A stretch of 60,996 nt of DNA, counting the filler, from Hausera hauseri (lineage: Eukaryota), in NCBI GenBank assembly GCA_046269625.1. It is 12 parts of 12 records of this genome, joined end to end, with 100 filler letters (N's around TTAATTAATTAA, not from the genome) between each part and the next. Parts side by side here need not be neighbours in the genome. Positions count along the whole stretch, not along the records: positions 11,374 to 15,983 come from JBJURY010506130.1; 11 more parts are not named here. The stretch is one strand, 5' to 3'. Positions within the stretch are counted from its first letter, which is position 1. The number at the start of each line of letters is the position of its first letter. This document shows, piece after piece, positions 1 through 59,619 of the stretch. The translations under genes were made by a program, and so were the position numbers. A model generated the notes under the pieces. It did not search any database. It saw only the letters and a list, made by a program, of their open reading frames with translations, and was not told the DNA's origin.

Positions 1-1251
1 GAGGCCAACAACAAGTATATGGCTGAATACGACTCAACAAAGGAGTCATCATATATTTCCTACCTGGATGCCAACAACTTGTATGGATCGGCAATGAGCG
101 CCCCATTGCCATATGATAACCTCAAGTGGGTTGAGCATCCTCAAAACATTCCCATACTGGACCTGGATCCCACTAGAGATACGGGATACATAGTTGAGGT
201 GGATATAGAATATCCGGCTACTATCCACACAAGGCATCAACAGCTGTCTCCTTCCTGAGAGCAAACCTCCGCCTCCTGGAAAGCATAGAAAGCTGCTCTG
301 CCATCTGGATAGTAGGGAGAGGTATGTAGTCCACTACATAAATCTCTTGCTAGCTGTTAGACATGAACTCCGCATTACTATGATTCATAGAGCCCTGCAG
401 TTCAGCCAGTCCATGTGGCTGCAGTCCTACATAGATCTTAGTACGAAGCTGCGGACAAATGCCAAGAACGATTTTGAGAAGGAACAGTTTAAGCTTTACA
501 ATAACAGCGTTTTTGGAAAGATTATGGAGAATATCCGCAACAGGATCAACATTGAACTGGTCTCCGAGTGGAAGGGGGCAAAGTAGCTCATTGCCAAGCC
601 CAACGTCCACAGCAGCACCATGTATTTTGAGAACTTGGTTAGCATCCATATGCTGAAAACATCGTTGCAATTCAACAAGCCCATATGTAGGTATGGCAGT
701 ACTGGACATGTCAAAGACCCTGATGTACAAATTCCACTATGACATTGATCCCCACGTGCAAGTCTATACAGCTGATGTATATAGATACTGATAGTTTTAT
801 TTATCCGATCCCTACTGAGACCATTTATGAGGACTTTGCTAAGTTGTCACAGCATATGGATACGTCTGACTATGCGAAGAAGCATCCCAACTATTCAATT
901 ATCAACAAGAAAGTCCTTGGGATATTCAAAGACGAGGTAAATGGGACAATCGTCTCGAGATTTTTAGCTCTTGGGTCCAAAATGTGTGCGATTGATGTAT
1001 GTGGTCAGTTCAAAAAGAGAACTAAGGGCGTTCAAAGGGCTACCTTAGCCAAGAAGATCACTTTTGCGGATTATGTGAGAGTTCTGCATGATCAGACTTA
1101 CATCATATCAGAGATGCGAAGGATCCAGTCTAGGGATCATAACATTGAGACAGTAGCACTACAGAAGAACAACCTAGATCGGATGGACGACAAAAGGCAA
1201 ATCCTGGGTGATGGAATTCATACACTACCTCACGAATATGTGGCATTGTAA
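1..1251 (+). pseudogene. Polinton/Maverick (adintovirus-like) protein-primed family B DNA polymerase, C-terminal half, disrupted
   Basis: Motifs YLDANNLYG (A), KLYNNSVFGK (B), YIDTDS (C), KxxKGV and the terminal DDKR, spread over ORFs 19-258, 347-586 and 739-1251 with stops and frameshifts; AATAAA near 1279. Confidence 0.93.
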
Positions 1252-4159: not shown

Positions 4160-5320
4160 TTTGTTTTAATGCATCAAATGAATTAACTGCACGTTGGCGA
4201 CAAATTCGATTTAAATATAGGTTTTCATATATGGAGATTCGAATTACGTCATTAGATTCTTCGAACGATGTATTCCTAACCAAATATTCGAGTTCTAATC
4301 GATAATTATTCGCGTTTTAAGCTCGATATCAAATATTTGACATCATATTCCTAATCACAATATACATGTTCCTATCTATCTGTGCTTGAAGATTTGTTGA
4401 TTTCAATGTGCTTTACCTTCAAATTCACCTCAATTGCTTACTCAATACAAGAATTACTTATTATTTATTAAGTACTTTTACCATATTGGTAAACCTTGTT
4501 TTATACACCGCAGTGCACTGCACCGCGCCGATATTGATTGCTCTATATGTTTCCACCCATGGGGAATCAAATGACGCCATTAGATTCTTCGTATAATGCA
4601 TTCTTGATCGAGTTTTCGAATTCGAATAGCTAATTATTCGATTTCAAATAATTTATTCGAATATCTAACACCAGATTCAGATTCATTATATATTGTGTCT
4701 ATCTATGTGCACTATTAGATTTTTCGATTTTAGTGTGTTTCACCTCCAATTTTACGCTCACTTGTGCAATCAAAATAAGCACCGTTTAATTACTTAGTAT
4801 TTTTTATGTACCTTTTGCTCGTTATTAAACATTGTTTTAATACACCGAGGTGCGCTGCACCGCGCCGATATTGATTGTCTTATAGGTTATCCAGAATGAA
4901 GAATCGACTGAACTCATTAGATTTTTTGAATAAACCATGCTTGACCGAGTTTTCGAGTTTGAATAGCTAAATATTCGATTTGTAAGTTCGAATTCGAATA
5001 TATAACATCATATTCCGATTCAACATACATGACCTCCTATCCCGCCCCGCTATTAGATGTATCGATTTCCGCTTTACTGGGCGTTAAATGCACATTTTGC
5101 ATAATTCGAAATATTGATTTTGTATCTATATAGTACATTTTCATAGAAATAATTTTTATGTATTAGGGAGTTCTCATATATGAAGAATTGATGGCCATTG
5201 TTAGATTTTTTGTATAGTTCGATATTCGATATTCGGGCCAAACAATTTTCAAATTTCGAATATTCGACTCGATATTCAAGATCGCCATAGTCGATTTCCT
5301 ATCTGTTGCCGCTTATTATA
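4160..5320. repeat. ~340-bp degenerate tandem repeat (3 copies plus a partial), subterminal to a Polinton end
   Basis: TACACCG..GTGC.CTGCACCGCGCCGATATTGATTG near 4503 and at 4841; CGAGTTTTCGA..T.GAATAGCTAA.TATTCGATTT near 4608 and 4946; a more diverged copy at 4160-4500. Confidence 0.8.
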
Positions 5321-11373: not shown

Positions 11374-13110
11374 CAGTAATACTGTCCGTAAAGCACTAGT
11401 AATAAAATATGTCGCTAGGAAACCAAAAGCTGCTTGGCCGAAGTATAAGGACTTTCCCCACATATTCTCCATAACATTTCTTGTTACTTTCTTTAGGTAA
11501 TCCTTATCCATTAAATTTTTTCATTGTGGTGATCCTTCACCATTTCCCATTACCTTCCTAATTAGTTCTGTTATAACTCTTTGTCTCTGTTGGGGAAACA
11601 ATAACATTCGTCGGAAATCTTCTAGATTTTGTTGCGTATAAATTCCTCCTTGCGATATTCCTGTTAATGGTTCAAACTTCTGATTCCTCTGTAAATTAAC
11701 CAAGCTTAACATCTCTGGTTTAGATAACAGTTCTCTTTTTGGCATTCTATTCCATTTATCATTATCGATTTTAAACATGGGCGACATATTGAAGGTACAA
11801 TTATATAGCGGAGTAGGATTTGTATTAACGTCTTACAGTATTCTTGTCACCAGCATCACGTACCTTGGTTCTGCATGATAAACTATGGCAATTCAGTTGT
11901 GCATTCTTCCGTTGGCCTAATTGATACTTCTGCCTTTTTGCACTCTATAGTTATTAACACCTCGCCCATTACTCTTCCAATAATTCCGTTGCCAAAGGGC
12001 ATCATTAGCGCTACCATATTTGAATTGGTTATCACCAAGGCCATTTTATTTCGTATTATTTCATAATTTAGCTTACATTCTTTCATTATTATTTCTCGAT
12101 ATAACCCTTTATCTCTTTCCTTACATAGTTGATTAGGAAATCAATCTTATTATTAAACTTAATATTATTATTAAACCTTATATCTTCCTTATCTATTTTG
12201 GTTTTTGCAACAGGTATTTCTTTTGATGATAAGAAAATACCCTTATAGGTATTTCTCGATATTTCTTCACTACGTCTATTTACTTATCCAGTGACTTTGA
12301 ATCGCATCATTTCCTCTTGGTTTTCCGAATATACTATTGTAGCTACCACCGTCACCTTGACTTCTTTTGTTCCTTCTTTATATGTCGCTGTCTCCTTTTC
12401 AGCCGTTTTCCCACTGTCTTGTTAAATTTTCCTTATTTCAACAACGTTAGTTGACATTTGCTGGCGGACGTTTTCCATATCATTTTTGACTTTCCGGTAT
12501 CGCATTCGCCATTATCATATTCACAGTCACTCATGATTGTCATTAATTTTGTTTGTGAGTCAAATAATCCTTCGTATTCCTTCAATTAGATCTGATAATC
12601 TTCTATAGCTACCGTTGTAGGTGCAATAATACCTCCAACGTCATAATCCACTCCTTTGCAAGTGTCTTCCCTTGTTTTATCTATCCTTTCTGCTCTAAAA
12701 ATTCTGATATACCTTATTCTATTCCGAAATGCCGGTATATGCGCATTTTGAATAGTTATTATACCAATCTTAAAGGCATCCTGACATTCCGCTCGTGATA
12801 TTATTATTGGCTCAAAAGGTGTTGTAGGCTCGATGATGGCCGAATTTTTAGAGTAATAGGCACAATTAAACAGGAAAAATGATCTCTTGACGTAAAATTC
12901 CCTAACTTTCACTTTCATAAATTCAGATTCCTGATAAACCCAATATGTGAGGCCACTTGTCGTTGTTAACTGTTTTGGGTCGGCTTCTGGACATTTCTCC
13001 AAATCAACTAATGAATACTTTTGCCCTTCGCTAGGTTTTGAGCAATCATAGACCATTATGCCTACGGCTTTTGGCATAAATAAGGACGTTATTATAGGAT
13101 CTGGAGGATT
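11374..13110 (-). pseudogene. env: Envelope glycoprotein, chuvirus-G / herpes gB-like class III fusogen type
   Basis: Signal-like ILQIL/IITSLFMPKAVG, then IMVYDCSKP...SLVDLEKC, SRAECQDA, CEYDNGEC, GEVLITIECKKAEVSIRPTEECTTELP, GIYTQQNLEDFRRMLLFP and a TM-like WGKSLYFGQAAFGFLATYFI. Confidence 0.8.
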
Positions 13111-13189
13111 TCGTTTATTGAAATTCCTGTTATACTTGGCCTAGAGGTGTTCGGCTGAGTTAAAATCGACGTATCTATTAATCTTTGTT

Positions 13190-13560
13190 TTCCTGACATT
13201 GTTATGTTAGTCATTAGACTGGTCAACCATCCCTCTCTACATTGAACCCAATTTCCTAACGTATATTTTAAAATTTTGACGGCTGTCTTTATATTTCGTT
13301 TGATTTCTTCTAAGTTTTGAGTTGGATGGTTGATTACTATTATTTTGTATAGAATGTAAAATATAGCAGGTTACGCTTTCTCTCGTATAATACCTGTTGC
13401 GAACATCTTTTCTAAAATATCTAGTTCATGTAATTCGTTTATCCGTTCTTCATCTAGATTTTCATAGAATTGCCTACTAATCCGTAACATATTATTACGC
13501 AAGGTTTGAAATAGGTCATCAGGAATTATCACTTGCATGTCAAAGGAGGCGAATGATATA
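13190..13560 (-). pseudogene. BCL-2 family domain (BH3/BH1/BH2-like), one in-frame stop
   Basis: LFQTLRNNMLRISRQF (BH3-like); EKMFATGIIREKA*PAIFYILYKII (cf. Bax MFSDGNFNWGRVVALFYFASKLV); VKILKYTLGNWVQCREGWLTSL (BH2 LxxWIxxxGGW pattern); all in one frame. Confidence 0.68.
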
Positions 13561-13689
13561 TGTAGTTTAGCCAATGAAGTTCTTAATAAGGGATCTATAT
13601 CTACAGATTCAGGTGTAACATTTGTTCCTGCTAATAATAGACGTCATACTATTTCTTTGTTTCTATATTTCCTGTTACGAATATCATTT

Positions 13690-14030
13690 ATCTTTGTTCC
13701 TTTTGGTCTACCTTTTCTTTTAGTTTCGGTTTGGACTGTAACGTCTTACGTACCGCCTGCGGGAGGACCTTCTACTTCTTGTGGTTCAATTTCTCTTAGG
13801 ATATTATCCATTGTTGCCTGCGCTCTCGCCTCTGGGTGTATTTCGGTTATAGTTATTGGATTGTAGTTTGCCCTTTTGCATCCAATTCTCAATAATTTAT
13901 CATAACTATAGAGTGTCCTTCCATAATAATTCAATTTATAAGGACTCCCTTGGTACAATGGTTCCAACTCCTCTATCTTTTCCCGTAAAGATTGTATGTC
14001 ATCTGTTTCGTTCATTCGGATAACCCTCAT
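13690..14030 (-). pseudogene. Ubiquitin-like domain followed by AT-hook
   Basis: DDIQSLREKIEE...YKLNYYGRTLYSYDKLLRIG (UBL-like), then in frame past a stop TKRKGRPKG; homologous to 49350-49700. Confidence 0.6.
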
Positions 14031-14662
14031 ATCTTGATTTCCTTCTCTTACTGTTATCCTAATAGCTTCATTTCTTCCTTCTCGTCTTCGGCGGCTTTGG
14101 CTAATACTGTCCTTGCTATTTCTCTCACAGGACTAGTATCGTGGGCTAGTAATACCAATTGTGATAAAATTTCATGCATCCTTTCCGCTATTACTTTATT
14201 GGTAATTACCTTCAATATCATAGTAGTCGCTTTATCTACATCAATTATATTATTAAGGTCAATAGTCATTACTGATTAAATAATATCGTCTTCTTCGTCT
14301 AGATCTACACCTGGATTCTTTATTACTTGTTCTAATATAGCTTCATCAAATATTGGTGTAGTTTGAACTTCGTCCTGATCAAATGAGTGTGTACTGAGAT
14401 TACTCTTCTTTCTTCCTCTTTTCTTTTCCTTTCCTACCTCTTCTCCCTCTGTTGATATTTCCCTTGATCCAACATTTATGTCAATTATTTTCTTATTACC
14501 TTTCTTTCTTCCTTGACGGGTTACCTTTTTCTCTGGTTGCTCCCCTACCATATAAATACTATTATCTTTCAGCCTCTTTTGTTGTGTTTTATAGCCTTTC
14601 ACTTCCATCTCCAATTGTTTCTTCATGCGTTGAGATAACGTATCGGTTATATAATTAACACT

Positions 14663-15640
14663 TTACTTCTTTTTATTTTTAGCTTTAGGTTCACAATCCT
14701 CTGTTTCATATTCTTTATCAGATGATTCTTCTGATGTGGCTGATGTATAATCTTTCTTCTGTTCTTTATTCTTATTACTAGGTTTCGAAGAATCCTCTAT
14801 TCGTAATCTGCATAATTTCGCGATATGCTTATATTTGTTACAATTAAAACATTTCAGTCTTCCTTCTGAGTCTATACTTGGTAATGCTGTTTTATTTTTT
14901 TTAGATTTCTTTTTATAATTTGTCTTTTCTCCATCGTTACGTAACTTAAATCTTACCTTCTTTTCTACGTCTGACTCAGCTTCCATAGCTGACGTTTGTG
15001 ATGGGCTTCCCTTTCTTTAGTAACGTTAATATTTTTGTGTGCCATTATTTCTTTTTTATCGTAGTTATTATTGCCATTTTTAGACTTATTCCACCTATAT
15101 AGTTCCCCGTCTCGTTCGGCCTTTCGCCCCTTCCTTATTGCTTCCTGGAACGGAAGCGGGTCTGCATGTGAGATTATCATCCTTAATCTTTCTTCCAATC
15201 CATACTGGAATTGGGCTAACAGGGCATTATTTCTTATTGTAACTTCACGATATGCTCTAGCTGCCAACTTTTCCAAAGCGCAGAAAAAATCTTCGACTGT
15301 TTCGTCTTTACGTTGCCTCCTTTTTATGAATTCTTCGATTCTTCCCTTCCCAGAGGGATGTATAAGAAACTTTTGAGGCAGTTTTTCTTTATTTCCTTTC
15401 CAGTCCCTCCTGTCATTGTCTGGCATTTGAAAATATATCATGAGAGCTGTTCCTTTTAAATGGAGGGGTAATCTTTCTACTCTTTGTTTATTATCCCATC
15501 CAAAACTCTTGGAATATATTTCATATTCCATCATAAAATCTTGTAAGTCTTCTTTGTCCGAAAATTTCTTCACTGGTAATGTGAAATCAGCCTTCGACTG
15601 AATCACCTGCTCTACATTATAATTCCCATTACTTCGTCTT
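14663..15640 (-). pseudogene. gag: Ty3/Gypsy-type Gag (capsid plus CCHC zinc knuckle), frameshifted
   Basis: LPLHLKGTAL, RRQRKDETVEDF..ALEKLA..AY, QFQYGL, CFNCNKYKHIAKLC. Confidence 0.88.
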
Positions 15641-15756
15641 CACTTAAATTTCGTAAATATTCTACTCCGAAAGGCTCGTTTTCTTCTGGTTGGTATAACG
15701 TTCGTTTTCTTGTCGTAATTTTGCTATTTATAATCTAAATGTCGTTAAATAAAATA

Positions 15757-15772
15757 CCGGGTCACGGCACCA
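15757..15772 (-). promoter_or_regulatory. Primer-binding site complementary to tRNA-His 3' end
   Basis: Minus strand TGGTGCCGTGACCCGG, 3 nt after the LTR end (...GAACA). Confidence 0.8.
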
Positions 15773-15775
15773 GTT

Positions 15776-15983
15776 TGTTCAGTCCTCAGTAATTACGTTG
15801 GGAGAGACTTGAATAAATGATTAATTAATGGGGAGAACAAATTTGCTTTACTTATTTACTTATTCGTTACACGAGGGGGCTAAGGTGTCTTACCTAATTA
15901 TATAGTCAGTAATATGTAAAAGCGATACTCGTTACTTAACTTTTACTTTCTTACTGGTTAACATATTATTATTTATGATTATA
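15776..15983 (-). repeat. 5' LTR (U5 end), truncated by gap
   Basis: Ends in CA before the PBS; similar to 46857-47080 (TGTTCA.TC.TCA.TAATTAC..TGGGAGAGACTT...GGGAGAACAAAT). Confidence 0.75.
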
Positions 15984-18639: not shown

Positions 18640-20171
18640 GCAATGTTGCTGCTTCTTGTTCGCGTCTGTTTGGTTTATTTACGTAAGTTATTTCCAGACA
18701 TTTTTTCGGGGTTATATTGAATACAGTAAACTTTGAACATAAACCGTTGTTTATATTTTAGCTCTATTCTTGTGTCTTCTGGTAGTTTTGAATAATCTTG
18801 AAATATAGTGTGTAATTTTCGTCCTTTGATGAAGGTTGAAATTAGATTTTGTTCCAATTAAGGTGCTGAGGTCAATCGTGCCAATACGTTGGTTATACAT
18901 AATGCTAATATGCATGAGAATAATACCACTTTGCTAAGTTTTAGTTGTATGCCTTGGCCTTGATAGTTTATCGAAACACTTTCGGTATTTTGTTCGTTGT
19001 CCAATTCGATAGAGTTTTCATTTGTAATAAACTTCTCGTTAGATGTGGAATTCAAATCATCTAATTCAGTAAGATTTTNNNNNNNNNNCAGTGTGAAATT
19101 TGAGATGAGTCGGTGTAATTTTTTAATATTTTCATCCATTTTCGTCCAAGTGTCCCTATCTCTGATAGGGCCTCAAAATTTATTCTTCTTGTTCTTTAAA
19201 TATTGGTTTATATTGGTAATTTGTTTATATATTTTTGTAGGATATTGTAGGCAAAACATCTTAGTTAATGGAATTTCTTTTTTTGGCAAATCTATTAAGT
19301 AATCTATTAAGTAGCCTCTTTTATTTTGTGATAAATTGACTTGGGTTAGTCCTAAATAAGTAATAATTTTATTAATCAATCTAGTACCGAATATTGCATT
19401 AGACTTTACCCCATATTTCTGAGCAAGTGCGTCCATTCTTGCATCATGCAGTTGCACTGACCAATGATAAATCTCTATAGTACTCGCTTGCGTTAAGTTA
19501 ATTACCTCTTCATCAATTACTTTTATCCCTTTGGATTGGTTCTTATTTTTATTGAAACTGTGAAGAACTTGTATCATGTATTGTCAAATTTCCTCTGTGT
19601 CGAAGTCGGGTGTTAAAACAAAGTTATTAATATGGAAATGATCTACTATTTGTTGCAATAAACTCTGATGATAATATTCATTAAGGCAGTAAAAGTAGTT
19701 TACATACTGGCTTTTGATGCAACTGATCGTTTCTCCTGGTACGTCATGATGATTCAGGCCAATTTCCCATACAACCTGGTATATCCATCTATCTACTTCT
19801 GGAGTCGGCTTTGATAATGCTTCCAAGCTTTTATTTAAAAGTTTGGTGAAACGTACTTTTCTACTAGTAACCTTTGACAATGGTAGTGGCGTCGTTTGTA
19901 ATTTCTTTGTACAACACTTTTTATCTTGCGTATCTGGATTTTCTTCCGTGATCATTTTTCTTCTAATCAAGATATCTGAATAGTTATCAGAACATTTTCT
20001 CATCATGTCATAATAATCGAAGTTGAGACACAGTATTGGATTACGTGATCGATATCTCTCCATGTCGAATAAGTAATTCAACACAGCTTGTTTCTCTTTC
20101 GTAATTTCAAGATTTTCTTCATCTACACAATGGATAAACAATCTTTGCCATTCTCTTTTAATGGCCTGTTC
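18640..20171 (-). pseudogene. Long decayed ORF of unknown function with an internal signal/TM segment
   Basis: ORFs 19584-20141, 19173-19577, 18858-19139 and 18675-18857 continue in one frame across single stops; hydrophobic VVLFSCILALCITNVLA. Confidence 0.45.
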
Positions 20172-23450: not shown

Positions 23451-24808
23451 ATGGGCATGGCGAATTACGTCGATGTAAGATTAAACATTATAATAACAAA
23501 AGGAGAGTCATTCGAGAAGAAGACGCCCTATGGATCAAGTTCAAGGGTATTCGGAATTGGTTGGAAGGGGAATGCGAGTTTTGATGCAGGAAGTGAATGG
23601 ATGGGCATGGTGTTCCAATTCAAGGGTGTTTTATACAAAAGTAAAAGAAATTCGTTATATTATATCGATACAGATCATCCATTGTTGGTGGTAGAGCGTG
23701 GTTTGTGCTCCGCACCGTGATCCGCTGGCGCAAACCACGTGAGGCATTGGTCTTTCGAAGTGTCCATGTCTGTCTCCTTGTTTTCGGAGCTTATTCCTTT
23801 CGTTTGAATGTTGAAGTAAAAGGGGTAACCTTATGTGAAATATGCAAGATGAGGAGATGCAGTGGAGTAAATAAAATGAAACATCGTGACTATTTCGCAA
23901 AGGCGACGCTAAAATCGGGAGTTACGATATCTTGCGCCGAGGGCAATAAATATTTGAAAGGGCGAGACAAAAATGTCTATGTTTCTAAAAACGTGGAGAA
24001 TAGACGTCGATTAATAGAACCAGTCGTAACGGACTGGAGAGACCAATACATCAGAAGGTCCTCGTTCGAGACGAGTGACCTCAAGAAATTAAATGGATCA
24101 CAGGAATTTAAAAGAGATTTGAAGTTTAAAACTACTGAACCTCGAGTTAAAAGGATCTGTCGAGAACCAAATACCAATGGCGTAGAATGGGAAAAGACAT
24201 TGGAGGATTGCATACTGGAAGGAAATAAGTCTCAAAAATTGCGGGAGTCGTCTGAGAAGGATGAACGAGAAGAACTCAGTCTTAAGGATTTTGTGAAAGA
24301 AACAACAAAGACAGAGAAGAGAAAATTGACGATATTTCTTGAGAAAATTTAGGGAAAAATAATTGCAATATTAATCAAAATGTCGGAGAAAGTAGAGGAA
24401 CTGAAGTCGGTTGTCGAGGAAAGAGAAGGGATCCCAACAAACCAACAACGATTAATTTACAATGGAAAACAACTAAAGGATTCTCGGAAACTTAGTGAAT
24501 ATTATATTCAAAAGGATTCACCTGTTCATTTGCAGTTGCGATTAGAAGGTGGGAGTGAATTAACTGTGGACGAACTGGAAGATAGGATATCTCAGCGTCG
24601 TAAGTACATCAACGACCTTTCAGCGATTCGGGGGAAGTTAATGGATGTAAACTTGAATGATCATGAATACGAAATGTATCATGGAAAGTATGACAAGTCG
24701 TTTACCGAGCTTCAAGGGGAGTTGAGTATATTAGCCACCTGTAAGGTTCCACCTTACAAAATATTAAATAAATATTTTTCAAAAAATTTTGTAAAAATTA
24801 ATTTCTAA
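23451..24808 (+). pseudogene. Intronless polyprotein fragment with an internal ubiquitin/NEDD8-like domain
   Basis: [75 protein letters not shown], in frame with ORF 23705-24352, plus a C-terminal extension. Confidence 0.75.
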
Positions 24809-24964: not shown

Positions 24965-27900
24965 AAAATAACAAAATCTTCGATAAAATATAGGAAATTA
25001 ACAATGTATTTTCCAAAAAAAATTTCAAAGCAAAAAAATGTCCGTCTGATACAATGTATAATAAGTGCGTCTTTTTCGATTATTCAAACAACAAAAGAAG
25101 TTAAAGAAATTTTTTTTTAAAGAAAAGTCGGGTGAATAAGATTATCATGTACGCTCTTTTGTGGTACGCTCTTTTTTCGCAGAATTGTGAGAATGTGATA
25201 TTTTCCTAATTGAAAAAATTTTTTTATTTTATAATGTACAAATTTATTACAATAATTCTTGTTCGGTGAAACTGAATAATTGGCTTTTCAACGACGATTA
25301 TGTAATAAACGGTCAAAATTAAAAGATAGAATAATTGGTAGTCTGATAAGTAGCCAAATAAGAATATTGATTTTATTTGCCACTAATATGGATTGTTTGG
25401 CTGCCAAACAAACATAGACCAAAAGGTCAAAAGCAGGACGAAAACCGTGCCGGCCTATCTGCACCAAACGGTGACTCTATTGCCAATAATGGAGGTCCAT
25501 GTCCTAGACCGTAGCAATACATTACCCCCCCCCGTGGCAGAAAAGAAACTGTAAAGCAAAACAGAAAGAGGCTAAACGCAAAAAAATATGTTTAGTGCCT
25601 ATTGAGTTTTGGTGTGTATGAGGCGTTGTATTCCGTCTACGGATTTTTTCCTGTTATAGGTACTAAATGTCACTTTGCATGCATTATTTGATTGATTTGT
25701 GCTTGGCTGTTAAACGGTATTTTGTGGTAGACATTTTGTAAGGTTTTCTGATTCAATGTGCTGTGTTGCTTGTGGTGCAGACGTTGAAGATGGTGAAGAG
25801 AATAAATGAAGCAAGAGAGACAAAGAAACTAAAGGCGGTGGAGATGGTGAAAGAGGAGAAGAGAGGCGGGCGGAGAAAACGGAATAAGTGATGTAGGTAC
25901 AGTAAGCGGTGCGGAAGATCAGGATGATTTATTGTGAGAGAAAAGTGGTTGCTGCAACGAATCGAAGTTGTGGAGGAAGTTTGAGGAAGGAATGGAAGGA
26001 GTGAGAGCTGAGTTAGGGTTGGAAGTAGAATCGGCATCCGGATTGTTATCAACGAAGAAAGCGGGCTTAAGATTCGAAATGTGGACGTTGTAGGGTTTAT
26101 CTTGGCATAAGATGGTAGCTGTGTGAGATGAGAGGTGAAGCAGTTTGTATGGGCCAACATACTGAGGCCTAAAACCCGAAGGTGATTGATCCTTCAGCCA
26201 TACAAACTTGGCTGAGTATAAATCTTTCGGAATGTACGATTTGTTATTGTTAAATAAGCGGCATAACGAGTTTGAGCTGACATCAACAAAGTGAGACTGT
26301 GCCGCGCGAATGTGTTCGTCTGTCGAATTGTAGTTAAGGTCGGAAGGTTCGAACAGAGACCGTATTGGAGTCCCAAAAAGTGCCTCGACTGCAGCACAAC
26401 CCGTGGTGGTGGAAGGAGTGTTGCGCCACCCGAGTATAACAAATGGTAGGATGGACGTCGAATTGCGATGATTGTCTGCCAAGATTTTAAAAGAAATTTT
26501 CATACTTCGATGGAACCTTCCAAGAAGGCCATTTGATTGTGGATGGTACGGTTTTGTATGGAAATGTGATATCTCCAAGCGGTTAGCCAGCGATTTAAAG
26601 AGTTCCTATTCGAACTGCGGACCTTGGTCCTTTATGATGTGCCGTGGGCGTCCAAAACGACTGATCCAGATTTTAATAAAGGCATCTGCTACTGAATCAG
26701 TGTTTGTTGAACGGAGAGGAACGGCTTCAGGCCAGAGAGAAGCACGATCCATCATAGTGCGAATATGTTGATACCCGTTATCAGAAGTTAAGGGTCCAAC
26801 GAGATTAAGACGGACAGTATTAAAACGTGATGTACATGGGAAATGGTAAAGCGGCGGTTTAAGATGTTTGTTGACTTTGTATTTTTGACAGGCGGCGCAT
26901 TCTTTAACCCAACCCTGTACATCTGTACGCATTGATGGCCAAACTGCATGACGTTGGAGTAAGCGAAATGTGGCTTTCGAGCCTGGATGATGAAGTGAAT
27001 GCGTGTAAAGGAAAGCTGGTTTCTGCAAAGAAGGAGCGAGAATGATTTTTTTATTACCGGGCTTAGATATGTCGTATGCAATGCCATCAGTGATTTCGAA
27101 GGATTTGAAAGAGCTAAGAATATCGGCAGACGGCTGATTGAGCTTTAGAATTTCGGTAGAAAATATTGGTTCAACCGTAATTGAGCCGATCGACCGCAAC
27201 AGAAAATCCGAGACCAAATTCTCGGTTCCTGAAATATACTTTATGACAAAACTAAATGTAGATAGGTACGATATCTGTCGTTTCTGCCTCGATGATGGCT
27301 GTTTTAGTGACATGATGTGCAGTAGAGGCTTGTGATCCGTTTGGATGATAAATGGACGAGAGAGGAGGAGATGCTTAAAATGTTTTACTGCCAGATGTGT
27401 GGCTAGTAGCTTAAATTCAAATGCCAAATATCGGCTTTCTGGTTGTGTGAGTTTTCGATAGTAAAATTCTAAAGGTTCGTCGACGCCGTTGAAAACCTGG
27501 TGTAGTATTGCACCAGTAGCTGTGGTAAAAATATCGGTGGTAAGTATTAGCTCCGCGTCGGGTTTTGGATAGGCCAGTATTTCGACAGTTTTTAGGCCTT
27601 CACGTAAGTGATCGAATTTGGTGACTAAATCGGGAGTCTATTGGATTAACTGTCTTTTCTTTTCAGATGAGAAGTGTGCGAAAGGTGTTATAAGCTCAGA
27701 CCAATGCGGTATGTATTTATGGATGAAATGTAGTGTGCCAAGAAAATTTTTCATATCTGTATTGGTCGTTGGTAGTATTACATTTTTCAATTGCTGTAGT
27801 GGATCAGGTTGTGGAGAGTGGCCGTGAGGAGTGATGATGTGGCCTAAGAAATTGACACGCTTCTGAAAGAAGTTGCACTTGGAGAAGTTAACTTGTAAGT

Positions 27901-30159
27901 TGCTATGATGTAGTTTGTGGAAAATAATTCGGAGATGTTCATGGTGTTGTTTCACGGAATTGGAGGCAACTAATATGTCATCGATGTAAGGATGAGCAAA
28001 ATCAAGGCCTGAGAGAACGGTGTCGATGTGGTGTTGAAAAGTTTGGGCTGCGTTACGTAAACCGAATGGCATAAAAATGTATTCATAAAGGCCAAATGGA
28101 GTGATGACAGTAGACTTTGGAATGTTATCGGATGCAACGGGAATATGATTGTAGACTTTGTGCAGATCTATTGTGGAATACGCATCGGTGTTGTTAAGAC
28201 TGTGCAGGATGTCTTTTATGAGCTGTAATGGATAAGCATCCATGATGGTTAGATTGTTTACTAGGCGGTAGTCGCCACATAGTCGAAAAGTACCGTCCTT
28301 TTTTGCTACTACATGGAATGGTAAAGCCCATGGTGATTTGGACCTCCGAATGATACCAGATTTTTCGAGTTCGTTAAACTCTAATTCCAGGGCTTTTCGT
28401 CTACGAGGCGATAATGGTCTCACCTTTTGTCTGATAGACCTTTGGTGTTGGATGACAAAGTGGTGATAAGTTGTTGACAGGGGCTTAAAACTAGAGTCCT
28501 TTTTGAGTATGCGAGAACAAGAAGAAATGATGTGTGATTTGAGGTTGGAATCTAGTGATAAAAATGACTGAGGCGTATTATCAGAGGAGGCGGTGACTGT
28601 GATTGGTGAAGAACGAACGACATCGCCGTCGTCAACATTCGGTTTATCCGATTGTTTTAAAATCGACTTCGATATTTGAGATGTAATTCAGAAAATAGAT
28701 AAACAACTAGATGTATCGTTATCAACCAACGAGCAATTTTCCAAATTCACATATGAGTTCGCTGACGATGTGCCTGTTGAGCTGTCTGGTAGACGATTGC
28801 CAACGTTCACGACGGAATATCTACGTAGGAAAAAGCCATATTTGCAGTTAACCAGAAGATCGTGTGCGGCCAAAAAATCTGAGCCGATTATTTGCAATTT
28901 AATATTGGCCACGTGGAATTTCCAACAAACTTGCCTGGTAAGTTTGAAAATGTAAAAATCAGTTCCGTGGTACCTGCGATTCGCAAAGATTGACCGCTGG
29001 CAGTGAAAAGCTGAGGAAAAGAAACTGCCGTTGATGCAGGGACGAAGGACAAAGGGAGGAGTGAAAAGGCAGCTCCTGAATCGATAAGAAAATCGATATG
29101 TGGAGCATTGCTAGAGAAAAGTGTAGCTTTTAACAGAAAAACTGCAGAGGCGATGTTAAGACGGCCAGAAGACTGAGAAGTATTGCCTACGCCAGAATGT
29201 GCCGTAACATCTGGCGGCCTTTTTATTTTTTTTTGAAGATTGTGGAGTAAACGAAGATGACTGATAAAAAGAAGGAGGAGGAGGAGAAGATGAAGAAAAA
29301 TTGAAGTTGTTTTTGTAATGTTTACATTCCAGAACACACAATCTGGCTAGAGAATAAAATTTTATGTAATAAATACAAATAAGGCTGTCCACTGCAAAAC
29401 GCTTGTCATAAAATCTACAGCCCAAGAGACATTTTTCTGTGTTTCTACAACATTTCTTAGGATAAAAACAAATCATTCTTCCGCCAGAAGATTTAGAACG
29501 AAATGAGTGCCTGGAGAGGCTACGCTCACGCGATACACGAATATCACCTCGCCGAAACATAGACAAGTTACTTAGTTGGGCCGTGATGGAGAAAATTGAA
29601 TGTTGTAGAGTATCGTATTGTTTCTGAATTAATTGTAGTTGCTGTGCAAAAACAATCGTGTCTACGTGAGATGGGGTATGCGTGGTTGCTGCAGCTACGG
29701 GTTTTGAGTTGTTAGTTTGCAAAATTTCGAAACTTTCATCAGCTAATAGAACAAGTTTTTCAGTTGCCGTCTAGTTGTCAACGACAGTAAGGAGAACTCT
29801 GATAGAAGTGGGCAAGGAGGAGAGGAAATAACGACGAATCAAGTCCGCATTATTGATGGGGGTAACGCCAAGAGCACTTAGGTGTGAAATATAGATCTGC
29901 AGAAATTCAGAAGGCTTTTAATTGCCTACAGCATGTTCGTTAAAGTACTTCTGTAATATATTATCAATCGATGGATCGGTAATATGTAGACCAGACTCAT
30001 AAAGCATGTCATATGGTGTTGGCGAAGTAAGGATATCAGCAAGGTTATTGATCTGATGCTTGATATCTGCTGGGCGAAGAAATAACAAGCTGTTGGCGCG
30101 CAAGAAAGAATCGGTAATATGATTGGCTTTAAGCCATTGTAAATGAAATTGTAGCCAAG
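24965..30159 (-). mobile_element. Ty3/Gypsy LTR retrotransposon, CsRn1-like (gag-PR-RT-RH-IN, PPT, 3' LTR), decayed
   Basis: CHCC-type Gag motifs, LIDSGA, RLCGDYR, MPFGLRNA, YIDD, TDHKPL, HSLHHPG..CAAC, DQGPQFE, YHPQSNG, YVGPYK; G-run PPT at 25525-25533, then TG at 25521. Confidence 0.92.
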
Positions 30160-33779: not shown

Positions 33780-34408
33780 TATACAATTACTATCACATCT
33801 ATCACACAAAATACAGAACCAGTAAAATTAATTTTATAATACGCAAGAAGCAATAAGACAGAAAACATAATACACACGTTCCAATAAGATTAATCATATA
33901 AAAATGTACCAATAAGATGTATCACATAAACTGCATGTACCAATAAGATGTACCATGTAACACAAAATTACGAATTACATGCTTCACATATTAGACAGTA
34001 CCAATAAAATATACTATAAAATAAACAAGGACCAATAAGATATACAAGTAGCAATAAGATGTGAAATATTAAACAAGTATCAAAAATGTAACTCTTAATA
34101 CAAAAGTACGAATAAGATGTATCACATAAAACACAGGTACCAATAAGAAGCATCACATAACATACACGTACCATTATGAAGTAACATGTAATACACAAGC
34201 ACAATAATATGCATGGCATAATAAACAAATACCAATAAGATGTATCACAAAATACACAAGTACCAATAAGATCTACCACATAATACACAAGTACCAATAA
34301 GATGTACCACATAATACACAAGTACCAATATGATGTATCACATAATACACAAGTACCAATAAGATGTATCACATAATACACAAGTACCAATAAGATGTAC
34401 CACATAAT
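33780..34408. repeat. 31-bp minisatellite (CAAGTACCAATAAGATGTATCACATAATACA)
   Basis: Near-perfect copies at 34257-34408 that degenerate leftwards. Confidence 0.92.
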
Positions 34409-41239: not shown

Positions 41240-44200
41240 ATACTTTTCTTAGCTCTTCTATCGTATTCTCCACCATAATCTTCTCAACTACTGCGTCGTC
41301 AGTTAGGCTACTTTTCAACAGTTTCAAACGCGAAATTTTCATTATTCTGGCTGCGTTAAATATTGCCTTTTTTTTGTCATCTAATGTATCTCCGCGGAGA
41401 CTCGAATAATTTACGATTCGTATTAAATTTTTCATTAACTCGCTTAGTTCTTTATTATCTGTACTAAAAGTGGGAATCGATATCTGGCTTAAGTCTCTAA
41501 TTAGTTCTCCATTATAGTCAATTTCGTCTCGGGGCTTCCTGGGTCTGCCGACTGGGCGTTTCGATTTTGGAGCATTAGCTGGCATTTCCCTTAACGGTAC
41601 TAGATTCTTGTCATATTGTTCTTTGTCTTTATCCATCTGTAAATATTCGAAATACATTTCAGCGTCTCGTACTCCCATGATTTGTCCTATGCATTGTTTC
41701 GTTTAGCTTCCGCGTGGCTTCTTCTTTTGTCTGTTCGTTGGCTATAATTACTACTATCCTATTTGTTTCGCCGGGGATGATTCCGACATCTATTAACTGT
41801 TCTAAATCTTCGAGTATTCTTCCTCTAAAGTAAAATCTGTAATTTAGCTTATTCCTTTCACCGTCGTTTAGTAACCATTCTCTTACGTCCTTTACATAGG
41901 AATAGGTAGTTAACTCACATTCCTTCTCATCCATCCATTCGGATAATATAATTACTTTTATCATTACTTCGGGTTTAGTCTTCAAGATGTCTACGTATTT
42001 TTTATAAAACGTTTCGGTACCTTGCTGTAAATTGTATTTTCGCTAGATAATTTAGTCAAAGTCGGAATAAGTTGTCTAAGATTATTTTCAATTATATTCA
42101 CATTAATTGATTCCATCAAGTCCTTCTCAGTTAACGCTGAGTCTAGGAGCATCTCTACGTTGAATTTCCTATTCTGCGGATACATTTGTATTTTATCTAG
42201 GTGTACTGGAGTTACCGGATTTTCGGCCGTTATTTCTTCTAAATAAGCGTTCCATTGTGGTTCATATCTAATATCTGGGAGTCCCTAATCTACAAGCTCT
42301 ATGTTCGTTCTTTGCACATTTTATCGAATTTCTTTTAGCCTTGGTTATATTTCTTTTATCCGCGTGGTTCGGAAACCTATTCCGTTTCCACAGGCATACT
42401 AAATTATTTTCGGTAGATCGCCTAGCTCGTTAGAAATAATGAATCCTTTTTATGATAATTGGTTAGCTCAATAATTACATCTTTTTCTCAACTTTGTACG
42501 AATTCTCGCTTATTTTTAATTTCTGATTCCAGAAAAGCATATTTGTTTCGGTAGCCTTCAAACTCTTTTGTTTGTTCGTCTAGCCTCGTTGTCTTTGATT
42601 TGTTCTGATACATGTTTCTTCAACTTGTTGTATTTTGGGAATTAATTGCCTCATTCTTTCGTCATTAATCTCTGCCATTTCTACTAGTAAATAAGCTAGC
42701 CCATACATCCCATTTATAATTTTCAAGTCGGAATCCATTGTATCCAGCAATTTCTTTACGAAATTAGATTCTTCGACAGTAAGACGTTGGTCGTTTCTTA
42801 TTCTCGTCAATTCGGTGTTATAATTCTGCTCTGTACCGGCTATCCATTCTTGTGGTTTATGCAAAAATCTTAGTGCTTCTATTAGGGCTGCTCTATGTTC
42901 TGAACAAATACCTAGGGTTTCAATATCCTGAACCGAAATCTCATCGATCGGTTTCTCGATTAAATGTTGGATTCCTTCTTGCCGGATAGTTTTTAACTTT
43001 GAGTAAAAATTACAAGTCACAATCCGTTCTTCTATAAAGTTCGTTTCTTCAATCATTTTATAGATTTCTTCCAATATTGTCATTTCTTGTTTCCTCTTCA
43101 TAAAATTTAATTGTCCTAATGATTCGAACCGTGTCCGGATGTCTATTTCTACTTATATGGTGGTTAAGTTACCTGAACCTTCTTCTAGTTGCTTTTTCAC
43201 CGATGGCTCACTTTCCGGAAATTCTTCCTTGCGGTCTTCTACTAGTTTACTTAATCTTATCATTAGTTCGGATCATTCTGACAATTGATTAGCAATTATT
43301 TACTTGGCTAATATTGCTTTGTCTTACGTTTTATAGGCGTCTTCCAATTCATCGTCTGGGCCTTTTATAAAATTCATGATTTGGCTAACATAGTTTAACT
43401 CATGCTTATATTCGTCGAATTCTATGATACAAGCTTTTATTATATATTTGGTTTCGTCGTTATTCATAAACATAATCCGATTTCTTAAACTATTGATTTG
43501 TGACCTTCTTTCATTATCCATTTTAATGCGACTCTCTAAGTCCGCACATGGTCTGTTCTCGACGAAGGCAAATTTTATCATCTTCATTAAGTTAGGAATA
43601 TCCATCGGGTCTACACCCAATATTTCTAAATCAATATCACTTCGATTGCTAACCGGTTTTTCCCTAAGGCGATTTATCATTGTATAACGTATTTCGTCCA
43701 TCTTACGTTCTAAGTTACGGGTTACTCTCTTCAACTTGGGATTAGCTTCTAAGGTAGATAGCAGTGTTTGCGCTTCAGCGACTTTTACACTAATATTATC
43801 TTCGTCTTTACTCCATCCTTCTGAAAATTCTACTCCACTTTTAATCCACGACTCTAATTCGTGGTTCCATTTTATCAACGTATCTTGTGCTACCTCTTCC
43901 GGTTGTCTTACTTCAATTGCTTCATCGAGTTTCCCTTCACTCCACAGTCTTAAACTCTTGTATAACTTCTCCGCAAATTGTTGTTCCTTACCAGATATAT
44001 CTGTTTGTTTACTAATCAGCTTGATCCTTTCCAAATTGTATCTGAGTATCTCTGGATTGTGACATTTAATTCTCATCCTCTTTAATTCGCCAGCATTTTT
44101 CCATGAACGTCGAACTTTCCATTTTTCACATCAGAATCACTATTATCGTTCATTTCTTCCTCACTGGCGGGAAACGGACAAACTTCGTTTATTTCGTCAT

Positions 44201-45719
44201 TAACATTTATCATCTTGGATGTCTGCAACACTTCTGAAATCCCTATAAGCGTAATAGAAATCTCTGAGGGCGAGTCATCTCTTAGGATAGCAGTATGGAA
44301 ATTTATTTTTTCTTCTGTATCCCTTTTAATGGGAGATCGTGAACGAGTCTTAGATTTTCTCTTAGGCGATTGGCTTCTACCTCTATTCTTTGTTATCTTG
44401 AGAACTAATGGTCCGATAAATTCACTTTAGACTCCATCCGTTATTTCGTCTGGATTATGCGTTTCTGCTTCTATTTCTGCATCTAATTTTATATTTTGAG
44501 ATGTTGATGGTTTCTCCGACTGAGCTAATCCTTGCGAAACAGACTTTTTACGTACCATATTAGTATTATTTGGAGCCAATGCCCATTCTTCTTCAGTCTG
44601 TGGTTCTCTAAATCCATGATAAACTTCCATTAATCGTAATTTCTTTTCATATTCTTTTCTAGCGTTTATGACTTGGGGATTTAGTAGTTTCACTTAGATT
44701 TCTTACCGATCTGCGTAAATCTTGCATTTCAATAATGAGGCTTATATCTTCTCGTTTATCATAGATGGCTTCTAAGTTATTTTTGATCATACTTGTTTTG
44801 TTCGGTTCGGTAAATGTGACGCTTCTGGAATTTGGAAATGACCTAGCGATGTGTCCTTCTTTTCCACACGTAAAGCATATTAAATTCCTATTCCGGCCGA
44901 TCCTTTGTCGGCCATCTTCATTTACAGGCGATTTCGCTCTGTTTGTATTCTTATTCCGATTCTGTAACATTTGTCTATTATCTCCGTCGTATCTGCTATC
45001 ATTAGTCCGATTATCCGTGTACCTATTTGGTTGATAACTACCTTGGTTCCTGTCCGAATTGTAGTTTTGTTTATTACTGTTCGAGCCATATGCATTCCGG
45101 TTATTATTAAAATTTCTGTCATTCCTTTGATTTCTATTGTGAGCATTTTGATTCCTGTTATCAAAACCTCGATTTGGGTTATTATCATTAAATCGTCTCT
45201 TATCTTGATTATCATTTCTATTTCGATTATTGCGGTCGTTATTCCTTCCATATTTGTCACCTTCTTGGACATATTTTTCTAATGCCATTTCTAGATCTTT
45301 TGTTAATTGTAATATCCTCTCAAAATTATCTGGTCTGGCCAGAATTAACTGTTTAACTAAATCTCTTGACCATATGCCATTTAGTAACTGAGTCCTCATC
45401 ATGACGTCTAAATCTGGTGGCGTTGCCTTTTCCGCGAACTCACGCTCTGCCTCTGCCTTAGCCTTAGCTACATTGGCTATCCTCAGGGCACTTACATAAC
45501 TATGAGCGAGTTCCTCTAATGCAAATGAAAATTGGGTTACCGATTCACCCTTTTGTTGCACTCTATTCTGAAATGCCATAAGCTTTTGCTGTGGCGTTAC
45601 TGTCGGCAATAATTTACGGTTTAAGGCTCCTACCAGGGAGGACCAAGATTTCTTTTCATCGTTAGTAAGCTCCCTATAAGTATCAGCAGCTAGATTCTTA
45701 AGATACAGTAATAAGCGTT
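41240..45719 (-). mobile_element. Large Gypsy-type element fragment: Gag, long helical region, UBL, AT-hook; no pol in 3.4 kb after Gag
   Basis: RVQQKGESVTQF..LEELA, Asn/Arg-rich linker, CFTCGKEGHIAR; UBL VKDVREWL..YRFYFRGRILEDLEQLIDVGI; KRPVGRPRK. Confidence 0.75.
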
Positions 45720-47887: not shown

Positions 47888-49720
47888 TGGTGCCCCCGAG
47901 TAAGGAGACACGCTGGCGTTGTATCATTTACGAACTAAAAGTAAAGGACAGGCTAATAATGTAATAGAAAATATGGAAACAGAAGAAAACCTTCAAATAG
48001 AAAAAAATCCCCAAATGTCCAACAGGCGCAGCTTGGGTAGTAACCTAGGTGGCACTATGATTTTGCCCATGGATAAATTCAAACGAAAACCAGATCAGGA
48101 CTACAGTGAGTTTCTGATGCAGTACCAAATGTACTCTTTTCGAATGGACAGACAAGCTGAGGATAAAACTCCTTCCACTTCATCTTGAAGGTATAGCACT
48201 TAGTGCTTATACACAAGTAATGAAGACATAAGTAAGGATGTTCTCCTAGCTCAGCTCTGTTACGGAGTAACCAGAGAAATTCAAAATTATATTATCATTG
48301 TCGATCCTAAAACCTATAAAGAAGCTGTCAGTAAAGCCAGAAAAATAGACGTTAATTACGAAAGGCTTGAAAATATGAAAAAATCTCCCAGAAATGATAA
48401 CAAGAAAGTGAAAATTTTTCAAAAGATATTCCAAAATCTGTCAGAGCAACAGCAGAAGAAGGTTACTTTTCAAAATCAACCTAAAATGTCTGCAATGAAG
48501 AAACCGATAGTCAAGCAGGATGGACAGCCATTGTGTTTCTCCTGTCAGAAATATTGATATATGACTCGTTCGTGTCCCACTCAAGGACAGTCAAGCTCAA
48601 AGAAAAATAACACTAATATAATTTGTAAATTATCTGATATGGATATTGAGCATGAAACTACAGATGGAGCCTGAACATACAATAGAAAAGCTCCAACAAA
48701 AGATTAGAGCTAAGTTAAAGAAAGTAAAACAGATGTGGTAGAAGACGACGAATATAAAGTAACTGAATTAAAGTAGTTACATTTAGAATTAAAAGAACAG
48801 CAAATTTGTAAAAAAAGACAAAATAATGAATGAAAATTCAATTATTGCACTAATAGGCAGGCCTAAAAAGAACCTGCATCAGAATCAGACACTGAAATGA
48901 AAAAGTTCGAAAGAAAAGACTGACCTTTAATACAAGAAGAGGACTTGAAGACCCCTGAGTCAGACTTACCCTCATATAGTGAAAAAAGTGATTAAACTGA
49001 CAAAATAGAGAATAAGAAAGAAAGTGAAGGAACCGCCACAACAACTAGAAACTTCACCTATATATTTGGACCAAGATGGCATCGAAATAGTACGAAAAAT
49101 ATCGAGTTACGTCAATCAATAATTAATTGATGGCACTCAATTTAAACAGGATCTCTCAATGTTACTGTCACCTACAGTAAGCCATCAACAGTTTGGAAAT
49201 TTATTGGGCCATTGCTAATATATGATGTTGACAAGAGTCCACACCAAAACTGTGTGATATATAATCTACCGCTACGCAGAAAGAGTAAGAACTATTGGAG
49301 AAAACCCTGAAGTATTATTTATTGTCCAACATAACCAAGATCGCCATGCTCTGAGAATAAAGTCGTTAGACACGATAACTGTACTAAGGCATAGGATTAA
49401 TGAAATAACCTAGGTTCGAGGAATGCTAGAATTGCAGTTGTATGGACGGACATTGTTAGATTACGAAATTATGTATGAAGTAGGAAAGTGGAAAAATAGA
49501 TATAACCCCGTGTGCATTACCTTCAAACAAACTGAACAAGAGATAATAGATGAAATTCTTACCGACGTCAGATAAAAGGATGTACAAGAAGCTGATCAAC
49601 ATCACGAAGTTCAACATACAGGAATGGAAACAAATATTCCTGTATCATAACAGATTCAAACCGACAAAAGAAATCGAGGTAGACCTAAAGGAACGACAGA
49701 AAAGCATGAGATGATGAAGG
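47888..49720 (+). mobile_element. Relative of the pol-less element: PBS, gag, UBL, AT-hook; truncated
   Basis: ...TTAACA-C-TGGTGCCCCCGAGTAAGG (elongator tRNA-Met-like PBS); LPMDKF, PLHLEGIAL, AQLCYG, CFSCQKY; LQLYGRTLLDYE..YNPVCIT; KRNRGRPKG. Confidence 0.7.
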
Positions 49721-50010
49721 TACGATCAAGAATTTTTTGTTGTTAGTTCATGAAAACAAGTCTAGTATATATATCTATATATACTAGATTTTGAAAAGAT
49801 ACGATAAAAAAATGTGGAAAACGTACAAGTCATTAAAATTGTGTACATAAAAATAAAAATAATTATCAATTAATTACCGTAGAAAAGAAAAGATATCGAT
49901 AAAATAAAAACACCAAATATATAATCATTAACTGTTTTTTATGTTTATTTTATATTTCATGAAAGTAGATAATTGCCAACCGATTTTCCACTCTTTATTA
50001 TTGTCTATTT
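49720..50010 (-). repeat. Right arm of inverted repeat
   Basis: Reverse complement of 46520-46795 with scattered substitutions and indels. Confidence 0.88.
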
Positions 50011-50929: not shown

Positions 50930-52205
50930 TGATACAGAAGACAGAGGTTGAACTTTTTGAAGAATTCTGGGATGGAGAAATGCATGACATAGTGAGTAAG
51001 CCGAGTATGTTATATGCACGACAGCAGAACGAACATGCGTTTGAGGTAAGGAACTACCAGCCTAAGCGCATTATTGTTTTTTTTTCTATCTTCTGGGTAC
51101 CATAAACTACCCAGAGAAATGATGTATTGGGAAGTGGCGAACGACTGTAGCGTGGATATAGTGACTGAGGCCCTCAGTAGCCAGGAATACATTGACATCA
51201 AGTGCAGTCTCCATCTCGTCAGTAATGCTGAATTTCATATATGCGAGAAGTTTTACAAAGAGAGTTGTTATTTCGAGCTACTTAATAAGAGGTTTACCAA
51301 GTTTGGAGTGTTTTTGCACAACATATGTGTAGGTGAGGAAACGATACCTTACTTCCGCATACACTCCTGCAAGATGAACATGACGGGAAAACTTGTGAGG
51401 TTTGGCTTCAATTTATTGTCTTTGTTCCAGTAATGGATGCCTCTATAATTTCATTTCGTACGCTGGACGAGATGAAAGAGCTGACTACGACCTGGGACTT
51501 GGCGCTAGTGTTGTGATCAACTGTTGGATATTGACAATAAGCTAAATCGGCATGTTGTCTACTTCGACAACTTTTTCACTTCCCAGCATCTTCTCATTAA
51601 AGTCAGTAAACGAAATTTTTGAGCAACGGGGACCGTAAAAGTATATCGTCTGGCCGGCTGCACTCTTACAGACCATGAGGCACTGGCCAAGAAGGACCGT
51701 GGTTTATGTGATTTTCTCTATAATAACCTCAACAATACCATGGCTGCCAGATGGAACGACAATTAGGTGGTGACGTTAACAGTTTCACAGCGAAACCTAA
51801 TTGCTTTGTACAACATACACATGGAAGGGGTGAAAATGTTGGACAATTTTGTTTTGTTGTATCACCGTAAAAGTAAAAACTGGTGGTGGCTACTATTTAT
51901 CAACTTTATTTATGTTGCACTATGCAATACGCAGTTATTTCATCGTTTGGTACATGGTAAAGAATTGGACCTGCTGAAATTTATTTGTTGGGTTGCGATT
52001 TCGCTGCTGAAAGCAGAGCCAGTTGATAGCTGTTCAACAGTGTGCAACAGTAATCTGCTTGGTGGACCTTGGAATCTGAAGAGCATCTTTGATCCGTACT
52101 ACAGCATTGGTGAACATTACATCAAGAAGAATTTGGACAACAGACAAAGTCGATGCCATCTGTGCAAATGCATCACCCACCACATCTGTGCTGTTGGAAT
52201 TCACG
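50930..52205 (+). pseudogene. piggyBac (PGBD-type) transposase, decayed
   Basis: SGYHKLP...YW, CVGEETIPY, RFGF, VYFDNFFTS, ATGTV, RWNDN, YN.HMEGV..LD, KNWW, C-terminal Cys-rich domain. Confidence 0.9.
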
Positions 52206-53039
52206 ACGGTGGGGGAAAAAGATGAGCCTTGAACAAGGACAGGGGGTCCACCCACGCAACAATTGACTAATCAAGTAACACTTGCATGCTAATTGGTCAA
52301 TTTGACAACGACGAGTTGTATGGTGTGGTCGATTTTTGTGTCGCAAAAGACAAAGCCGGGAAATGCAAAAGAAAAAAACGACCTTTTTCCAGAAGCAAAA
52401 TTTGAGCAGGGATGTATAGGAGAAAGTGTAGAGTAGAGTACGGGCGTTCGAATGATGTGGGAAACATAGGGTTGGAGTGTTTAGGAAAAGTGGAAAAGTC
52501 GGTCAAGGAAGAGGTGGCGGAAAAGTCGGCGAAATAAATTGGGATCTCTAGCATAGAACCACCACCTTACGCATCACGGGTTACGCGTACGCGTCACGTG
52601 TGTCAAGTAACTGATGCCTAATCGATCACTTCATAAGTCTGACATNNNNNNNNNNNNNNNNNNNNNNNNNNNNNNNNNNNNNNNNNNNNTTAATTAATTA
52701 ANNNNNNNNNNNNNNNNNNNNNNNNNNNNNNNNNNNNNNNNNNNNTGAATAACGATATCTGAGATACATCGTCGATTTTTCTCAAAGGAAATATGGTGAA
52801 AATTATCAGTTCACACGGCGGAGAAACAGCAGCAGCAGTTTTGCCACCGGAAGGAGCTAAAGGCCATCTAACATTGAAGTTGAAAGGATTATGATTAATA
52901 AATTTTATTGATTTTGTTTTTCATATTGTTTCTCATCACATTAAGTTAAATATATGAATGTATATACATAAATTAAATGATAATAAAACAAGAGGCAAAA
53001 CAACGAACAATATACATTATTTATACAAAACAAACAGAT

Positions 53040-58989: not shown

Positions 58990-59619
<630 letters not shown>

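Follow-up and report, generated by a model that had tools for sequence, protein, structure and literature searches.

The window analysed here, 60,996 nucleotides from Hausera hauseri, consists of short eukaryotic contigs strung together with N44-TTAATTAATTAA-N44 spacers, and adjacency across a spacer is not genomic. The element under study fills one of these contigs, JBJURY010506130.1 (4,610 bases, window positions 11374-15983). Its minus strand carries, in turn, a Gag capsid region, a CCHC zinc knuckle, a probably helical region, a ubiquitin-like domain, a short basic motif that we take to be AT-hook-like, a BCL-2-like domain with an internal stop, the remnant of a hydrophobic segment, and an Env of the Monjiviricetes fusion glycoprotein type (Table 1). 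Env is interrupted by stops and frame changes, and the contig end cuts it at position 568 of the 653 positions of the PF24664 profile; a further scan with that profile gave E values of 8e-24 and 3e-6. No pol is present on the contig, which ends inside Env, and no aspartic-protease motif occurs in the element sequence available up to that point.

Table 1. Features of the element and of related copies in the window (positions count along the whole window)
Feature	Position	Strand	Evidence or remark
Gag capsid region, Ty3/gypsy (Arc-like)	15103..15585	-	tblastn with P0007 residues 19-182, 49% identity
Single CCHC zinc knuckle	14810..14851	-	Pfam zf-CCHC weak, E 0.3; frame differs from capsid part
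Probably helical stretch of ~80 aa preceding the ubiquitin-like domain	14087..14330 (approximate)	-	26% identity to P0007 370-452
Ubiquitin-like domain	13841..14072	-	33% identity between copies
Basic motif KRKGRPKG, taken as AT-hook-like	13698..13721	-	Sequence; no profile match
BCL-2-like domain	13227..13610	-	BH3-position helix 13574-13551, BH1-like 13406-13338, BH2-like 13259-13227
In-frame TAA in BH1/helix-5 region	13371..13373	-	P0007 without stop in the same domain
Polar tail and remnant of putative hydrophobic signal/anchor segment	13060..13226	-	Frame change near 13095-13080
Env, Monjiviricetes-type viral fusion glycoprotein	11374..13059	-	Pfam PF24664, E 2e-18 and 1e-13
Second, more broken family copy, on another contig	48030..49731	+	Gag to AT-hook-like motif; ends before BCL-2-like domain
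More distant element of similar plan	41240-45717	-	Gag (Pfam Retrotrans_gag E 0.0009), CCHC, longer coiled region, ubiquitin-like (E 0.011), GRPR

A search with the region from the ubiquitin-like to the BCL-2-like domain against 1,835,955,588 representative proteins returned a single match at E<=0.001, the protein P0007 (1130 residues, E 2e-51, 41% identity), which forms a one-member cluster and comes from a 4,786-base contig. In one frame, P0007 holds the Gag capsid, one CCHC knuckle, the ubiquitin-like domain, the AT-hook-like motif, the BCL-2-like domain, the hydrophobic segment and the N-terminal part of Env (Pfam Monjiviricetes_fusion, E 6e-19). In tblastn the same domains lie in the same order on the window contig, spread over three frames and several stops, and we therefore read the window copy as the decayed Gag-Env polyprotein gene of a multi-copy Ty3/gypsy-type element. 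Its stops and frame changes leave this copy unable to make the protein.

The smaller domains of the polyprotein are of varying clarity. With profile A2, the top PDB match of the Gag part is Drosophila Arc2 (E 0.024), and the ubiquitin-like part matches the ubiquitin-like domain of RAD23A (E 0.09-0.3); in P0007 the latter domain matches Pfam ubiquitin at E 0.031. Each copy has one CCHC knuckle, that of P0007 matching Pfam zf-CCHC at E 0.00025. Residues 370-452 of P0007, the counterpart of the helical region, have no usable match in the Atlas; our guess for this region, made from its pattern only, is a death-fold (CARD-like) domain. The GRPK-type core of the basic motif recurs in P0007 and in two further elements of the window, at 48-50 kb and, as GRPR, at 41-46 kb.

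The element belongs to a sizeable family. In one public run (X1), 13,027 contigs match the 4.6 kb with a likeness of at least 80%, and together they cover all 30 of its 30 bins, the BCL-2-like domain included; this full coverage makes the domain a regular part of the family and no one-off insertion. Run X1 may be the window's own source, and these counts accordingly speak for a multi-copy family and not for a wide distribution. In the window, the copy at 48030-49731 is far closer to P0007 than the copy under study, with 74-81% identity to it in short Gag pieces (tblastn). By this comparison the assembly would hold at least two subfamilies, and P0007 may derive from this host or one related to it. 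In the more distant element at 41240-45717, the contig end cuts where a BCL-2-like domain might follow.

Several other parts of the window carry features of their own. At 24353-24808 (+) a ubiquitin-like domain near ubiquitin itself (Pfam E 1e-19) is followed by about 85 residues and lies in frame with an upstream open frame of 235 codons, with one stop between them. A MATH-UCH deubiquitinase piece at 59011-59313 (+) (Pfam UCH E 5e-8, MATH_2 weak) is presumably USP7-like, and MATH is also a cargo domain of the planarian Burro elements discussed below. The long frame at 18858-20171 (-) has two internal stops, a hydrophobic signal-like end and no informative Pfam match. By eye, a Ty3/gypsy-type reverse transcriptase, RNase H and integrase occupy 25922-28687 (-) in one frame broken by stops, and Polinton/Maverick-type DNA polymerase B-like pieces and a piggyBac-like transposase are found at 209-1251 (+), 53503-56183 (-) and 51050-52225 (+). 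Taken together, these gypsy-, Polinton- and piggyBac-like pieces suggest that the host is an animal. Tandem-type repeat families lie at 1606-1861, 4197-5030 and 33898-34398, with spacings of about 63, 330 and 31 bp.

Within the BCL-2-like domain of the window copy, MFATGIIREKA (13406-13374), PAIFYILYKII (13370-13338) and LGNWVQCREGW (13259-13227) lie in one minus-strand frame. An earlier, sequence-only reading had proposed these as BH1-like and BH2-like motifs with a stop interrupting the first, and both the motifs and the in-frame TAA are where that reading had placed them. The Bax-like spacing that it proposed also holds, since 48 residues separate the BH1 Gly from the first BH2 Trp in the window copy and in P0007, and 47 do so in human BOK as counted on the profile alignment. 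The W-x5-GW signature of BH2 is kept (WVQCREGW in the window copy, WVKCRGGW in P0007), and a six-frame search of the 61 kb window for the pattern W-hydrophobic-x4-GW finds 2 sites, the BH2-like one and another that runs across a stop codon. Where BOK has GITWGK in BH1, the window copy has GIIREK and P0007 has GISRNK; both keep the basic residue and have lost the Trp and Gly of the NWGR signature, and WG[RK] occurs in neither. The proposed BH3-like helix fared less evenly. LAKLHISF (13574-13551) does occupy the BH3 position and has a Leu and a Phe seven residues apart. Its start lies just outside the interval 13190-13560 given in the earlier reading, and in neither copy does this helix contain L-x3-G-D, the definition of the BH3 motif given in PMC8093901.

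These departures bear on how the domain could work. For a placozoan protein, PMC8998228 takes the loss of the NWGR Gly to mean that a functional BH3 groove is improbable or that its selectivity is changed, and it defines pro-apoptotic members by a Gly-Asp-bearing BH3. Because BH1 is without Trp-Gly and the BH3-position helix without Gly-Asp, canonical BH3 binding by the retroelement domain appears doubtful, and the domain is no more than a candidate for a viral BCL-2 mimic in the canonical sense. Deerpox DPV022 has no recognisable BH motifs and yet binds BAK, BAX and BIM (PMC11209288), so divergent motifs do not exclude function.

BCL-2 was the family named in advance, before any profile match was obtained. 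The 183-residue translation of the window copy, with X at the stop, matches no Pfam family, Bcl-2 included, and no PDB sequence, and none of 159 candidates was a near-length relative; judged by this copy only, the case for BCL-2 would depend on how alike the motifs are. The 140-residue domain of P0007, the one of the two alignment members that does match, has Bcl-2 (PF00452) as the better of the 2 families listed among 24,736, at E 0.0022 (0.055 with the whole protein). The match runs over profile positions 5-100 of 100, a full-length alignment that keeps the order and spacing of BH1 and BH2, and scores 19 bits against a curated cut-off of 31.4 bits. A profile built from the two copies and searched against 177,635 PDB sequences gave 1 match at E<=10, human BOK (6ckv, E 0.52), in an alignment of 98 residues that pairs BH1 with BH1 and BH2 with BH2. 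Both this signal and the Pfam one derive from sequence, and they are not independent of each other. The P0007 stretch alone gave 4 unrelated PDB matches at E<=10 and no BCL-2 protein, and the full-length profile A2 gave 6, none of them BCL-2. AF2 models were all-helical and of low confidence (mean pLDDT 41 and 44), and four fold searches with them returned no significant match; the models are too poor to test the fold. The proposal of a BCL-2-like domain beside env in a retroelement thus stands as to its setting, an LTR-type element with a Ty3/gypsy Gag in which the domain directly precedes Env, and it finds its weak profile matches through P0007, whereas the window copy itself has neither a profile nor a fold match.

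Across the BCL-2 span the window copy and P0007 are identical at 48/98 positions (49%) without a gap, a level like that of Gag (79/155) and the N-terminal part of Env (90/179) and above that of four flanking or linker stretches (21/82, 9/33, 47/129 and 11/29; 26-38%), which points to constraint on the BCL-2-like span.

A comparable layout has been described in planarians. Burro1-4 and GYPSM1 are giant gypsy-like LTR retrotransposons of Schmidtea mediterranea and Dugesia tigrina (Jurka 2007 and Grohme 2018, in PMC6431247). According to the description of them in PMC6431247, a single ORF of about 4,900-5,100 residues encodes Gag, two or three CCHC knuckles, Smc, MATH, BIR and ankyrin domains, a Ubi2/SUMO-like domain before BCL2, and, in frame between BCL2 and the protease, an Env with matches to mononegavirus fusion proteins; PR-dUTPase-RT-RH-IN follows Env, the elements measure 25-30 kb with their LTRs, and MATH varies among them. 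The authors of that paper remark that meddling with host apoptosis would be worth testing, and hard to test in so complex an element. In the text available from PMC11410931 and PMC13238120, Burro is merely mentioned.

Our element shares with the Burro group its multi-copy state, the same order of Gag with CCHC, ubiquitin-like domain, BCL2-like domain and in-frame Env (one ORF in P0007), and an Env related to mononegavirus fusion glycoproteins (E 6e-19 for P0007, down to 8e-24 for the window copy). It differs in its single CCHC knuckle, seen in both P0007 and the window copy, and in an N-terminal half that is far shorter, with about 800 residues from Gag to Env, the comparison being drawn from the Gag-Env part alone. 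Further searches yielded no related locus that shows the part after Env. The 1130 residues of P0007, outside which the post-Env part lies, contain no Pfam match to MATH, Smc, BIR or ankyrin. Between its ubiquitin-like and BCL-2-like domains P0007 has an AT-hook-like motif, which goes without mention in the portions of PMC6431247 that we cite. Burro proteins are absent from our sequence-search matches, and the libraries searched may not contain them. Since the order Gag, ubiquitin-like, BCL2 and in-frame Env is published for Burro, the combination is known and the surprise limited; the element is likely a compact variant of this Burro-like layout. The expected rarity of BCL-2 in LTR elements holds to the extent that the Burro group is the only case found, but the layout is not new (PMC6431247). 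In the open papers that we searched, we found neither a functional test nor any LTR element with BCL-2 beyond planarians. Helped by the Burro precedent, we consider a BCL-2-derived fold of the domain very probable.

Other relatives differ in different ways. Cellular BCL-2 proteins (PF00452; nearest, human BOK, 6ckv) share the order and spacing of BH1 and BH2 and a C-terminal hydrophobic segment, which in P0007 lies 36 residues past the last BH2 Trp; unlike them, the retroelement domain is without the NWGR Trp-Gly and the BH3 Gly-Asp, scores below the curated cut-off, and sits within a polyprotein whose putative anchor would be the Env signal sequence. The viral BCL-2 proteins of herpes-, pox- and asfarviruses likewise belong to a mobile or viral genome and may show divergent BH motifs (DPV022), and the retroelement domain likely has their BCL-2 fold, but those of large dsDNA viruses are described as free-standing genes (PMC11209288), whereas here the domain is part of a polyprotein in a Gag/Env retroelement. 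Retroelements with Chuviridae/Jingchuvirales-type glycoproteins (PMC7642597, PMC10084718) share the Monjiviricetes-type glycoprotein; the term 'bcl-2' has zero occurrences in the text available from either paper.

It had also been proposed that the hydrophobic segment after the domain doubles as BCL-2 anchor and Env signal peptide. This fits P0007, in which some 35 mainly polar residues separate the last BH2 Trp from a hydrophobic 19-mer, followed by small residues and the start of Env; the 19-mer (residues 784-802, hydropathy 1.77) is the most hydrophobic of the protein and is in frame with both neighbours. In the window copy, however, the segment is broken, and the hydropathy of the X-read domain peaks, over 19 residues, at 1.13 within the domain itself. 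Cleavage by signal peptidase follows a small-residue rule. Residues 784-802 of P0007 would act as an internal signal sequence carrying Env into the ER, and signal peptidase would cut behind the small-residue site that precedes Env's conserved YDC. The upstream chain would stay tail-anchored, its BCL-2-like domain facing the cytosol as in cellular BCL-2 proteins. A protease would free the domain from Gag, either the element's own or through a host deubiquitinase-type cut after the ubiquitin-like domain, and the domain may then dampen apoptosis or ER-stress death via host BAX/BAK/BOK or BH3-only proteins, probably with a non-canonical groove. We regard a signal sequence that doubles as anchor as likely, and a pro-survival role in the particle-producing cell as somewhat favoured. 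The best explanation of the whole, in which we place modest confidence, is a decayed Ty3/gypsy-type copy whose likely BCL-2-fold domain would serve as a membrane-anchored pro-survival factor.

The main rival to a pro-survival role retains the BCL-2 fold and assigns it to another pathway (autophagy, ER calcium or innate-immune signalling) or to membrane shaping in particle assembly, rather than to blocking apoptosis by way of a BH3 groove; action on such other pathways is known from some poxvirus proteins with this fold. It would account for a BH1 without Trp-Gly and a BH3-position helix without Gly-Asp in both copies, and for a putative anchor that is an ER signal sequence and not a mitochondrial tail. 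We consider it unlikely on balance, given that the W-x5-GW of BH2 and the BH1-BH2 spacing are kept, that viral proteins such as DPV022 can bind BAK, BAX or BIM without recognisable BH motifs (PMC11209288), and that Burro elements also bear BIR (apoptosis-inhibitor) domains (PMC6431247). The domain might instead be a BAX/BOK-like pore former that brings death or permeabilisation to the producing cell and so helps release. The sole PDB match is to the pro-apoptotic BOK and the central helix is hydrophobic, but an E value of 0.52 is too weak to assign a paralogue, the Gly-Asp BH3 by which PMC8998228 defines pro-apoptotic members is absent, and an Env-bearing element would presumably need no lysis to exit the cell; this reading seems to us quite improbable.

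The likeness to BH1 and BH2 could also have arisen by chance in an unrelated helical bundle. All matches are weak (Pfam E 0.0022, PDB E 0.52), the window copy has none, and the low-confidence models gave no significant fold match. Against this, a BCL-2 member comes first in two different libraries, nearly the whole Pfam model is covered, the family had been predicted beforehand, and in the published Burro elements BCL2 likewise sits between a ubiquitin-like domain and Env (PMC6431247), so that we think chance resemblance improbable. Finally, a host BCL-2 sequence might have been captured once and be decaying without function, as the stop inside the domain of the window copy could suggest. In P0007, however, the domain is in frame and unbroken; between copies only about 50% identical it is gap-free and conserved like Gag and Env, and it is covered across the family in run X1. 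These observations largely refute a mere passenger, which we regard as very improbable.

Mimics of death regulators are a hallmark of large DNA viruses. Tentatively, and as a possibility that we hold to be rather doubtful, the element may represent a separate compact Burro-like enveloped lineage, perhaps outside planarians, in which a single hydrophobic segment would double as Env signal sequence and tail anchor for a virus-type BCL-2 protein whose groove has been rebuilt. If so, a retroelement would encode a death inhibitor of a size that allows testing, and the Gag-ubiquitin-like-BCL2-Env cassette would be older and wider than Dugesiidae. A compact version with a naturally unbroken domain of 140 residues makes it testable whether a genome-resident retroelement keeps its host cell alive in order to spread, and bears on the age of the layout in which Gag and Env share one frame.
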